Origin: Acidimicrobiia bacterium
Lineage (GTDB): Bacteria > Actinomycetota > Acidimicrobiia > Spongiisociales > ZC4RG35
Assembly (NCBI GenBank): GCA_965216495.1
Contig: OZ244163.1
Location: 1,597,672-1,661,671 of the forward strand
DNA: 64,000 nt
Direction of reading: 5' to 3'
Below the pieces are notes generated by a model that ran no database searches, was not told the origin of the DNA, and saw only the letters and a program-made list of their open reading frames with translations. The position numbers and the translations under genes are program-made. Below, in pieces: positions 60,685 through 64,000 of this stretch (position 1 is its first letter; the number at the start of each line of letters is the position of its first letter).

Positions 60685-61962
60685 GTGAACCCAATTCAGT
60701 CAATGCGGTCGATGGGCCCAAGGTATTTTGCCCTCTGGGTCGGTCAGACGATCAGCCAGTTCGGCACCTATATCGCACTTCTGACGATCCCGTTGCTCGT
60801 TCTCCACATCCAGGAGGCGGCCGGCGATGAGAACACGCTGGACTTCGCTCTCGCCTACGCGGCGGAAACTGCTCCAGCCCTGCTGATCGGCTTGACCGGC
60901 GGCTTGCTGCTCGATCGGCTCCACCTTCGCCCGGTGATGATTGCCACCGATCTCCTGAGGGCATGCGCCTTCTTCTATCTTGCAGGGTCGTTCGGCTCCT
61001 ATGGCGTCGTGACGGTGTTTGTCGTTGCATTCCTCGTGGGTTCCATGACGACGTTTTTTGACAGTGCCCTGTATGCGATGATCCCTGCCCTGGTTCCCGA
61101 GAATCGGCTTTCGGACGCGAACTCCTTCGTTACCGCATCGATCCAGGCCAACTTCGCTCTCGGCCCGCTGGTGGCTGGCGTCATGGCGGCGGTGTTCGCT
61201 GGGCCCGCGGTCGGCCTCTATCTCAATGGCCTGACCTTTGTGCTCTCGGCCGTCAGCTTGCTTTGGGTGGGTCGCGTCGCCCACCACAGAGACGCCACCC
61301 AAGCAACGGGGAGCTTTTGGAGCGAGTTCTCGGCCGGGATACGTCGCATTTGGAACGAACCACGGCTGAGGGTCTCAACGATTGCCTCAGCGGTCCCCAA
61401 CTTTGTCATGGGCTGGCTGGAGGCCACCTTCGTGGTCTTGGCAATGGTGGTACTCAAGACTGAGTCTGAAACCCAGATTGGAGTGCTCTTCTTCTTCATG
61501 GGAATTGGTGGACTCGTAGGAGCCCTCGTTGCGCCGAGAGTTATCCGGGCACTCGGCCTCGGGAGAACCATGACAGTTGGTCTGGGCATTTCTGGCCTCA
61601 CCCTCTTCGCCTTCATGTTCACGACCTATGGGCCGGTGGCGATGCTCCTGCTCGCCGTCTACATGTTCTTCATCTCGGTCCTGAACATCCCGCTAGCCAC
61701 CATCCGACAGACTTGGGCCGGCGAGTCGATGTTGGGACGAGTGGTGTCCGCGGCGCGTGCGATCGGGTGGGCCACTCTTCCGATCGGTGCTCTGGTCGGG
61801 GGTTTCCTCGGGAACACCGAATCAACCTATCTGGTCGTGGCCCGACTCTTCCCGCTCATTCTCGTCGTTTCAGCCTTCTGGCTAATGACGACTGTGATTT
61901 GGAAGGACACCTTCGGTGCCGAGTACGAAACTGCTGACGTGCCCGCCGAGTCAGCTTCCTAA
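60685..61962 (+). CDS. MFS transporter (macrolide-efflux/H+ antiporter-like)
   Basis: About 12 hydrophobic segments, LW.GQ.IS.FG, G.L.DR....VMI..DLLR and LGRV. Confidence 0.9.
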   Translation: MNPIQSMRSMGPRYFALWVGQTISQFGTYIALLTIPLLVLHIQEAAGDENTLDFALAYAAETAPALLIGLTGGLLLDRLHLRPVMIATDLLRACAFFYLAGSFGSYGVVTVFVVAFLVGSMTTFFDSALYAMIPALVPENRLSDANSFVTASIQANFALGPLVAGVMAAVFAGPAVGLYLNGLTFVLSAVSLLWVGRVAHHRDATQATGSFWSEFSAGIRRIWNEPRLRVSTIASAVPNFVMGWLEATFVVLAMVVLKTESETQIGVLFFFMGIGGLVGALVAPRVIRALGLGRTMTVGLGISGLTLFAFMFTTYGPVAMLLLAVYMFFISVLNIPLATIRQTWAGESMLGRVVSAARAIGWATLPIGALVGGFLGNTESTYLVVARLFPLILVVSAFWLMTTVIWKDTFGAEYETADVPAESAS

Positions 61963-62093
61963 GCGACGATCCGCGCCGCGATACTCAACCGGAAACCAGC
62001 TCCCCTCATTGCGCTGCAAAGCGTCAGGCTGTGACTGACCTCACGCAGCGCGGTCGAGTCGCGGCCAGGCTGAGGGACAATCGAGTAATACGG

Positions 62094-62180
62094 TGTCGGA
62101 GAGAGGACTCGAACCTCCACGGGGCTATAAACCCCACCAGATCCTTAGTCTGGCGCGTCTTCCAATTCCGCCACTCCGAC
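62094..62180 (-). tRNA. tRNA-Leu(AAG)
   Basis: GTCGGAG/CTCCGAC acceptor stem with discriminator A, anticodon arm CCAGA-CTAAGGA-TCTGG, long variable arm and TTCGAGT T-loop. CCA is not encoded (CCG follows). Confidence 0.93.
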
Positions 62181-62208
62181 AGTGTGGCTGAGCGATCTTA
62201 TCGCTGAC

Positions 62209-62448
62209 TCAGCTCAGGATAAATGTCAGCGCAAATGTGCTGATGCCAAACAAGATGCCTACCACGACAGTGAGCCGGTCGAGGTTGCGTTCAACAACCG
62301 TGGATCCGGTCAGATTCGAGGTCGACATTCCCCCACCGAACACATCAGACAATCCCCCACCTTTACCTGAGTGCAGAAGAACCAGCACCACGATGGCAAG
62401 AGAGAGAATGACATGTACGACGATGGCTAGGGCAGTGAGAAATTCCAT
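62209..62448 (-). CDS. secG: Preprotein translocase subunit SecG
   Basis: LLHSGKGGGLSDVFGGG...ERNLDRLT. Confidence 0.95.
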   Translation of the reverse strand: MEFLTALAIVVHVILSLAIVVLVLLHSGKGGGLSDVFGGGMSTSNLTGSTVVERNLDRLTVVVGILFGISTFALTFILS

Positions 62449-62520
62449 GTTGATAAAGAGAGAGTGTCGCTAAACGGACCCGGCAAGGTTACCACTGGCT
62501 CGGGCGCTTACCTACTCCAA

Positions 62521-63258
62521 TCAGCCGGCCTGTTTGCCCACGGCCTCTGCTGCGGCCTTCGCTGCCTCAGGATCGCCTAGATACGAACTCTCCAACGGTT
62601 GAAGCGCGTCGTCGAGTCGATAGACGAGCGGTATTCCAGTGGGGATGTTCAAACCCACGATCTCTTCGTCGGCAACGTCGTCGAGGTGCTTCACCAAAGC
62701 ACGAAGGGAGTTTCCGTGTGCAGCCACGAGAACCGTCCCGCCACTGTTCAGATCGGGAGCAATTCGATCTCGCCAATATGGAACCATCCGCTCGACGACA
62801 TCCTTGAGGCATTCGGTTCCCGGCGGGTCGTCCAGATTGTCATACCGCGGATCGTTGATGGGGTGACGCGGATCGGCAGGATCGAGAGCGGGCGGTCTCA
62901 CGTCATAAGCACGTCGCCAGGCAAGCACTCGGTCGCCGCCGCAGTCCTCTGCCATTTGCTTCTTGTTCAGCCCTTGAAGCGCCCCGTAGTGCCGTTCGTT
63001 GAGGCGCCAATCCCTGGTCACCGGAATGCTCCCCCAGCCTGCGGAATCGAGTGCCAGGTCTGCGGTGTCGATTGCCCGTCTCAGAACTGACGTGTGAACC
63101 ACATCGGGCCGTAACCCTGCTTCAGCCATCAATTGCCCTGCGTTTCGAGCTTCGTCACGGCCTTGAGAACTCAGATCGACGTCGGTCCAGCCAGTGAAGA
63201 GGTTGGCCGCATTCCAGATCGATTGACCATGTCTCAGAAGTACAAGGGTTCGGGTCAT
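62521..63258 (-). CDS. gpmA: 2,3-bisphosphoglycerate-dependent phosphoglycerate mutase
   Basis: [31 protein letters not shown] and IPTG motifs. Confidence 0.96.
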
Positions 63259-64000
63259 ACTCGGTACCTCACAATCGCCGCGAACTTGTCCGGATCGAGT
63301 GATGCCCCTCCCACTAGGGCCCCATCGACGTGTCGCTTGGCCATGATGTCCTTGACGTTTCCAGCGTTCACCGACCCGCCGTACAGGATTCTGATGACCT
63401 CGGCGGCTCCAGATCCGCCAAGATCTCTTAGGCTCGATCGGATTACTTCCGCCATAGAGCCAGCATCGTCAGCAGATGCGGTCCTCCCGGTTCCGATAGC
63501 CCACACTGGTTCATACGCGACAACGATTTGGGTCAGTTCGTCGGGGCTCAGCCCACGCACAGATCCGGCCAACTGAGAAAGGACCACCGCTTCAGCATCG
63601 CCGCTCTCGCGCTGGTCAAGCGACTCCCCTACACAAACGACCGGCGTCATGTCGGCTGCGACCACCGCCTTGGCTTTCTTGGCAACAACCTCATCGGTCT
63701 CGTCCATGTGCTGGCGACGCTCCGAGTGCCCAACGATGATGTGAGTGGCCCCAAGGCGCCTCAACATGGCGGGAGAAATCTCCCCGGTATAAGCACCGGA
63801 CTCCGCCCAGTGGCAGTTCTGAGCACCAAGACCGATCGGGATGTGATCCTGCTCGAGAACGATCTGAACCGACCTCATCGCCGTGAAAGGGGGCGCCACG
63901 ACTACCTCTACTTGGTCGTAGTCGTCCTGATCTAGCCGATACGAAAGCTTCTGGATCATCTGGATGGCTTCGAGATGATTGGCATTCATTTTCCAGTTGC
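63255..64000 (-). CDS. tpiA: Triosephosphate isomerase (5' end beyond the window)
   Basis: NWKM at the window edge, [30 protein letters not shown] and GALVGGASL. Confidence 0.97.

Follow-up and report, generated by a model that had tools for sequence, protein, structure and literature searches.

The leucine tRNA encoded after secG in this Acidimicrobiia genome carries the anticodon AAG in place of GAG, and this tRNA-Leu(AAG) is a functional, conserved and central member of the tRNA set, being the only tRNA of the genome with an anticodon fitting CUU and CUC. We infer, with good confidence, that TadA deaminates its A34 to inosine.

tRNA-Leu(AAG) downstream of secG

Two tRNAs were called by ARAGORN in the window (the whole 64,000-nucleotide stretch of DNA that was analysed), one of them, on the minus strand at 62092-62180, being a tRNA-Leu(aag). 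The Rfam tRNA model RF00005 matched 62094-62180 (minus strand) over the full model (positions 1-71) with 52.9 bits, the gathering score being 29 (E = 1.8e-10). The gene and its surroundings consist of the following features:

62094..62180, minus strand: tRNA-Leu(AAG), class II, 87 nt (ARAGORN, Rfam RF00005, sequence, genome-wide tRNA sets)
62142..62148, minus strand: anticodon loop, positions 32-38, C32 U33 A34 A35 G36 G37 A38 (sequence)
62209..62448, minus strand: secG, 79 aa (PF03840 SecG, 67.9 bits)
62521..63258, minus strand: histidine-phosphatase-family gene, between tpiA and secG (PF00300, 119.1 bits)
63255..63989, minus strand: tpiA, triosephosphate isomerase (PF00121, 285.5 bits)
60685-61962, plus strand: MFS transporter gene, next after tRNA-Leu(AAG)

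Read on the minus strand, the tRNA has the anticodon stem CCAGA/TCTGG, the loop CTAAGGA and the long variable arm of class II tRNAs, with the anticodon AAG at 62144-62146 and A34 at window base 62146 (T on the plus strand). ARAGORN, Rfam and the sequence thus agree with the preliminary description, which had given an intact class II tRNA-Leu with the loop CT-AAG-GA, and the minus strand is added here. The discriminator is followed by CCG (window 62092-62094), so CCA is not encoded; at the same place ACCA is encoded in several relatives' loci (L003, L007, L009 and others). The order on the minus strand is tpiA, the histidine-phosphatase-family gene, secG and tRNA-Leu(AAG), with the stop codon of secG 28 nt upstream of the tRNA and on the same strand. 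The histidine-phosphatase-family gene overlaps the stop of tpiA by 4 bases. A promoter scan around the tRNA found no sigma-70-like site nearby.

At the corresponding loci in other families of the same order (L022-L025, L030) the tRNA is Leu(GAG), and in six public loci (L034-L036, L041, L044, L057) Leu(GAG) stands directly after secG. The Leu(GAG) tRNAs of the other families of the order, obtained with the same query, are 77-87% identical to tRNA-Leu(AAG), with which they share the acceptor and T arms and the long variable arm. Because Leu(GAG) follows secG in other families and in other Acidimicrobiia, the AAG gene is the orthologue of this tRNA with a G34-to-A34 switch. The expectation that the tRNA after secG is commonly Leu(GAG) therefore holds at these loci from elsewhere in the order and the class.

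When the tRNA was used as a query, all 41 genomes searched gave matches at E <= 0.001, many of them via other leucine isoacceptors. A close match was present in 19 of the 21 same-genus genomes searched and in neither G013 nor G014. All 20 relatives' loci matching the tRNA at 94-100% identity (19 same-genus species and one sister genus) carry AAG, and GAG was not seen among these close matches. Within the AAG clade the 31:39 pair alternates between A-U (CCAGA/TCTGG) and G-C (CCAGG/CCTGG); the change is compensatory and points to a functional tRNA. With AAG at the loci of all close relatives and GAG in other families, the housekeeping G34-to-A34 switch proposed for this lineage is borne out; it is fixed in the lineage, a clade of several genera, and is no private mutation.

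tRNA set and codon usage of the genome

The genome has 2,325,429 bases in 2 contigs, a G+C content of 59.7% and a completeness of 99.69%. ARAGORN identified 67 tRNAs genome-wide, among which the leucine tRNAs are CAG, TAA, AAG, CAA and TAG; CAG occurs once more within a tRNA array. Infernal gave 66 tRNA hits, two of which lie beyond the ARAGORN list; these two, a Met(CAT)-like gene and, within the array, a tRNA-like sequence of 73 nt, are not class II. tRNA-Leu(GAG) is absent from this 99.7%-complete genome by ARAGORN, by Infernal and by pattern search (0 hits in G000, the handle of this genome), and hence the separate Leu(GAG) gene that the preliminary description had considered as an alternative does not exist elsewhere in it. 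tRNA-Leu(UAG) is retained. The other four-fold codon boxes are served by G34, C34 and U34 tRNAs; A34 replaces G34 only in leucine and arginine, and Arg(ACG) is the only other core A34 tRNA of the genome.

The tRNA array is dense (G000:C1:2166278-2168981, minus strand), with 21 ARAGORN tRNAs and the Infernal tRNA-like hit at 2167609-2167681. It holds anticodons missing from the core set, namely Thr(AGT), Arg(GCG) and Arg(TCG), and looks like a mobile or phage-type array. The loop of its Thr(AGT), UUAGUAA, does not fit the TadA motif. A selenocysteine tRNA lies at G000:C1:93363-93458, and ARAGORN with default settings missed a Met(CAT)-like tRNA, the fourth of its kind and a weak one (29.7 bits), at G000:C1:2273266-2273340.

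Codon usage was calculated from 1984 greedily chosen open reading frames of the genome. CTC leads the leucine codons with a share of 32.8% (31.9 per 1000 codons), in keeping with the abundance of CTC remarked on earlier, followed by CTG (30.0%), TTG (16.9%), CTT (13.6%), CTA (5.3%) and TTA (1.3%). In tuf and the S10/spc ribosomal-protein cluster, CTC accounts for 69 of 220 leucine codons, and CTT/(CTT+CTC) is 0.27 (25/94) as against 0.29 genome-wide. With CTC commonest and no shift towards CTT in highly expressed genes, the A34 tRNA must support a heavy CUC load. The corresponding value for arginine, CGT/(CGT+CGC), is 0.59 in tuf and ribosomal-protein genes versus 0.40 genome-wide. Two full-length EF-Tu genes with equal scores are present (G000:C1:124158-125339 and 210453-211634, both on the minus strand), and the duplication was also found in the relatives G018, G160, G109, G079 and G056.

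In the tuf and ribosomal-protein clusters of genomes from the same family, the T-ending share of CTY was 0.23 in four AAG genomes versus 0.18 in four GAG genomes. A similar T-ending shift between the AAG and GAG genomes was found in six of the seven other four-fold boxes, the serine TCY box going the opposite way (a small sample of 8 genomes). Because most other four-fold boxes shift likewise, no leucine-specific codon adaptation is seen, and no leucine-specific CTT shift was found in the highly expressed genes of these four AAG and four GAG genomes.

Distribution of tRNA-Leu(AAG) among Acidimicrobiia

Pattern searches for Leu(AAG) and Leu(GAG) were performed on 401 sampled Acidimicrobiia genomes. 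Leu(AAG) was found in 93 of the 401 genomes (94 matches), in 14 of 178 genera and at least 8 families, and Leu(GAG) in 218 genomes (223 matches); the patterns anchor on the conserved end of the D arm and on the T arm, so that tRNAs differing there are missed. No genome had AAG and GAG together. By family, AAG was present in 15/47 genomes of the window's own family (f1; genera g1, g19, g24, g26 and g30), 3/6 genomes of f14, 60/65 of the Actinomarina-like f16, whose genomes are about 1 Mb, 3/21 of f21, 7/7 of f25, 1/6 of f31, one genome of f42 (G412) and two genomes of f53 (G370 and G421). Genus g67 of f14 is mixed, with three AAG species and three GAG species. These tallies take in six unpublished genomes (G027, G038, G240, G276, G300 and G410), none of which is AAG-positive and three of which (G240, G276 and G410) are GAG-positive.

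A tree of 8 proteins (2609 columns, 8 genomes) placed the AAG genomes on one side, with a support of only 57 for the deciding split, which would be compatible with a single origin of AAG within f1. For the class as a whole, we see an even chance that G34 was replaced by A34 independently in at least 8 families, most of which would then have acquired A38 (sometimes also C32) together with loss of the arginine at the R152 site of TadA or a change from Phe148 to Tyr, both sites lying in the C-terminal helix. Leu(TAG) is kept in both Actinomarina-like genomes examined (G120 and G045), so these two do not show the loss of Leu(UAG) that would force an I:A reading of CUA.

These distributions bear on the reading that AAG is a sequencing or assembly error, a private mutation or a silent pseudogene. 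Nothing was found in favour of it. The only DNA run covering the whole stretch, X1, has a contig that spans 61900-62500 with 0 differences but possibly is the assembly's own source, so the relatives serve as the independent check. AAG is found at the loci of 20 close relatives and in 93 of the 401 genomes of the class, which come from independent assemblies, and AAG and GAG never share a genome. The compensatory change in the anticodon stem and the want of any other cognate CUY reader in the genome both speak against this reading as well. The probability left to an error, a private mutation or a pseudogene is negligible, and we consider all three excluded by the presence of AAG in relatives and the mutual exclusion of AAG and GAG.

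Remodelling of the anticodon loop

The loop of tRNA-Leu(AAG), CUAAGGA, differs from that of the genome's own tRNA-Arg(ACG), CUACGGA, only at position 35, and the A31-U39 closing pair is common to both tRNAs. The GAG tRNAs have the loop UUGAGGG or, in a minority, UUGAGGU. A38 occurs in 86 of the 94 AAG tRNAs and in none of the 223 GAG tRNAs, in which position 38 is G (210) or U (13). A CUGAGGA loop (C32, G34, A38) is present in none of the 223 GAG tRNAs. The AAG tRNAs without A38, which keep U38 or G38, belong to f25 (7 genomes) and to G412. U32 is found in all 150 GAG loops listed (of the 223 matches), and among the loops listed C32 occurs only in AAG tRNAs, namely those of f1, G103 (f31) and genus g91 (f21).

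Streptococcus pyogenes TadA edits both Arg(ACG) and Leu(AAG), its targets following the consensus YUAMGRA, while E. coli TadA targets follow YUACGAA (bioRxiv 10.1101/2023.09.19.555891). The loop CUAAGGA fits YUAMGRA, and an ancestral GAG-type loop with G38 would miss it.

Variation of TadA

One clear TadA was identified in the genome (G000:C1:553053-553493, minus strand, 153 aa), adjoining tRNA-Ser(GGA). Its best matches in the PDB are 7cph, 2b3j and 1z3a (E = 1e-32 to 1e-34; TadA of B. subtilis, S. aureus and E. coli), and it scores 139.8 bits against NCBIfam NF008113, just below the equivalog cut-off of 150. The cytidine-deaminase fold is otherwise represented in the genome by RibD, by a cytidine deaminase and by a nucleoside-deaminase-like protein of 150 aa. 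Class-wide, TadA was found in 366 of 401 genomes.

In E. coli TadA, R26 and R152 narrow the pocket for C35, bases other than C at position 35 are not accepted, F148 stabilises G36 and R153 reads G36; in S. aureus TadA, C35 has only a backbone contact, at G22, which corresponds to E. coli R26 (PMC10586758). By alignment to the E. coli enzyme, the TadA of this genome has G25 at the R26 site, F148, K152 and R153. The inspection of TadA suggested in the preliminary description gives one clear enzyme, in which Gly and Lys occupy the sites of R26 and R152, and a lower-scoring TadA-like frame of 150 aa. An alignment with S. pyogenes TadA (2nx8) ends before the R152-equivalent site, and loop-contact terms looked for in PMC8216470 had 0 occurrences.

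The two sites were compared in an alignment of 84 fetched TadAs, of which 30 belong to AAG genomes, 49 to GAG genomes and 5 to genomes of unassigned state; the genome's own was added, which brings the AAG total to 31. Position 148 is Phe in 49/49 GAG genomes and Tyr in 7/31 AAG genomes. At position 152, the 49 GAG genomes have Arg (41), Lys (4) or Gln (3), with no residue assigned in 1, and 23 of the 31 AAG genomes have a residue other than Arg. Taken together, non-Arg152 and/or Tyr148 was found in 28/31 TadAs of AAG genomes versus 7/48 of GAG genomes, and Phe148 with Arg152 in 41/48 GAG-genome TadAs and in three AAG genomes (G185, G135 and G077), although such raw counts for TadA and the tRNA overstate the support because the genomes are related.

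Repeated contrasts between sister lineages are the stronger argument. In the window's AAG clade, position 152 is non-Arg in 11/11 TadAs (Lys in 8, and Gln, Ala and His), while the nearest GAG genera, g21 and g31, have Arg in 9/9. Within genus g67, position 148 is Tyr in 3/3 AAG species and Phe in 3/3 GAG species. Tyr148 and Leu152 are found in the AAG genome G103, against Phe and Arg in the three GAG members of its family, and G412 (AAG) has Leu152, its two GAG relatives having Arg. Beyond position 152, residues specific to the TadA of the window's clade are weak candidates only (own positions 20, 70 and 141). In the TadAs of four Actinomarina-like genomes (L198-L201, from G086, G097, G101 and G194), the sequence LEPD(A/P)MC stands where every other aligned TadA has LEPCxMC, Asp replacing the first Cys of the zinc-binding PCxxC.

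Decoding of CUU and CUC

In the mechanism we propose, A34 has replaced the G34 of the post-secG tRNA-Leu(GAG) orthologue, and a single TadA would turn A34 into inosine by deamination in tRNA-Arg(ACG) as well as in tRNA-Leu(AAG). I34 would pair with U and C (and A), tRNA-Leu(IAG) would read CUU as well as CUC, and the abundant CUC would be read by an I:C pair, as CGC is in the arginine box. The Arg(ACG)-like loop, the loss from TadA of the arginine that presumably restricts position 35 and the high CUC demand favour this reading. The preliminary description had posed a broadened TadA or an unmodified A34 as the two ways of reading CUC; the comparative evidence favours TadA and inosine over unmodified A34 and does not demonstrate them.

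Several observations count against inosine. The leucine and arginine boxes behave differently, since the CGT share rises in highly expressed genes and the CTT share does not. A38 is lacking in f25 and G412, the ancestral TadA residues are retained in G185, G135 and G077, and the genome's own TadA falls just under the equivalog cut-off of NF008113. In vitro, S. pyogenes tRNA-Leu(AAG) was left unedited by E. coli TadA (bioRxiv 10.1101/2023.09.19.555891), so the presence of TadA alone is no proof of editing. If A34 were unmodified, CUU would be read by the standard pair, and CUC either poorly by A:C wobble or largely via tRNA-Leu(UAG), a reading we hold to be unlikely while granting it some weight. 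It has a precedent in Mycoplasma tRNA-Thr(AGU), whose A34 is unmodified, and E. coli can tolerate A34 tRNAs of four-fold boxes (bioRxiv 10.64898/2026.05.15.725136). tRNA-Leu(UAG) is kept here and in two Actinomarina-like genomes, so that nothing forces the A34 tRNA to read CUA, and some AAG lineages are without A38. Contigs of three metatranscriptome libraries over the tRNA (X10, X18 and X21; depth 2-3) match it without differences and so also have A, not G, at position 34; they come from relatives, because their flanks are unlike the window, they possibly represent DNA or unprocessed precursor, and contigs hide minority variants, which makes them weak evidence against editing. On the other hand, CUC tops the leucine codons of the whole genome and of the ribosomal-protein genes, and a shift to CUU is not seen, which would be hard for a weak A:C reader, and an unmodified A34 would leave A38 (86/94 vs 0/223), C32 and the changes at TadA positions 148 and 152 unexplained.

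If A34 is edited, the enzyme might also be a deaminase other than TadA, for example the second CDA-fold protein at G000:C1:1354789-1355175. The existence of this second TadA-like open frame, of 150 aa and with 67.9 bits against the TadA model, gives this some footing, but it scores far below TadA and matches profile positions 11-116 only, so that the helix region at the C terminus, by which the RNA loop is bound, is missing from it. The AAG-linked changes fall in the true TadA, and editing of tRNA-Leu(AAG) in S. pyogenes depends on TadA alone (bioRxiv 10.1101/2023.09.19.555891). We regard another deaminase as improbable, and TadA is the preferred enzyme.

Comparison with known A34 systems

Bacterial tRNA-Leu(AAG) has been placed in Lactobacillales, Mycoplasma and Prochlorococcus (PMC13249217; bioRxiv 10.64898/2026.05.15.725136; PMC8007984), which largely accords with the earlier statement that it is known mainly from some lactic-acid Firmicutes and cyanobacteria. 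As described for Lactobacillales (Oenococcus oeni, Streptococcus pyogenes and S. mutans), Leu(AAG) replaces Leu(GAG) and the two never occur together, TadA is single, tRNA-Leu(UAG) is retained and the loop fits YUAMGRA, all of which is also the case here. The present case differs in belonging to Actinomycetota (Acidimicrobiia), with the switch in at least 8 families of one class, and in its GC-rich background (59.7%) with CUC as the top codon and no leucine-specific rise of CUU, whereas in the AT-rich Lactobacillales UUA is the top codon. Position 35 alone distinguishes the leucine loop from the arginine loop here, while positions 35 and 37 do so in S. pyogenes, as reported. Editing by TadA is established in Lactobacillales, and here it is proposed from sequence comparison.

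Set beside the canonical tRNA-Arg(ACG)/TadA pair, tRNA-Leu(AAG) shares the enzyme family, the loop C32 U33 A34 N35 G36 G37 A38 and the A31-U39 pair, but has A instead of C at position 35. In the accounts of Mollicutes with unmodified A34 tRNAs (e.g. tRNA-Thr(AGU)), A34 likewise replaces G34 in a four-fold box, and some Mollicutes lineages are without TadA and tRNA-Arg(ICG) (bioRxiv 10.1101/2023.09.19.555891); in contrast, TadA and Arg(ACG) are both retained in this genome, whose leucine loop resembles a TadA substrate. An I34 tRNA-Leu with A34 in place of G34, as proposed here, is found with eukaryotic ADAT2/ADAT3 (PMC8007984). The ADAT2/3 heterodimer requires the entire tRNA and is relaxed in its specificity for the loop, whereas one TadA-type gene with an apparently loop-based fit would serve here.

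Novelty and implications

Outside tRNA-Arg, inosine at the wobble position is a eukaryotic hallmark, and to our knowledge it has been shown in bacteria only in a few Lactobacillales. Expansion of bacterial wobble inosine to tRNA-Leu is thus already known; the phylum and the GC-rich setting are new, as is the recurrent AAG switch across the class with matching changes in the tRNA loop and TadA. No report of tRNA-Leu(AAG) in Actinomycetota was found in the main texts of the literature searched. The main texts of PMC13249217, bioRxiv 10.64898/2026.05.15.725136 and PMC8007984 contain no actinobacterial case of it, and in the first two Actinobacteria and Acidimicrobiia are unmentioned. The main text of a recent Actinomarina genome preprint mentions none of AAG, inosine, TadA and wobble, and a search for literature on tRNA inosine in Acidimicrobiia or on A34 in Actinobacteria found nothing relevant.

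When these bacteria, abundant in soil, sludge and the sea, are annotated or their codon use is modelled, tRNA-Leu(AAG) should not be dismissed as erroneous. The decoding of CUC in AAG-carrying Acidimicrobiia probably depends on TadA, and tRNA-Leu wobble inosine, if present as proposed, would extend to GC-rich Actinomycetota, where its main job would be the reading of CUC. A two-residue switch would then let a bacterial TadA accept A at position 35. How TadA gained a second substrate has been stated as an open question (bioRxiv 10.1101/2023.09.19.555891), and the recurrent switches with their matching loop and TadA changes make this question directly testable. The state varies between sister lineages and even among the species of a single genus, which provides matched pairs for testing which changes in the tRNA and in TadA are required; if the proposed reading is true, the class would represent natural replicates of enzyme-substrate co-evolution.
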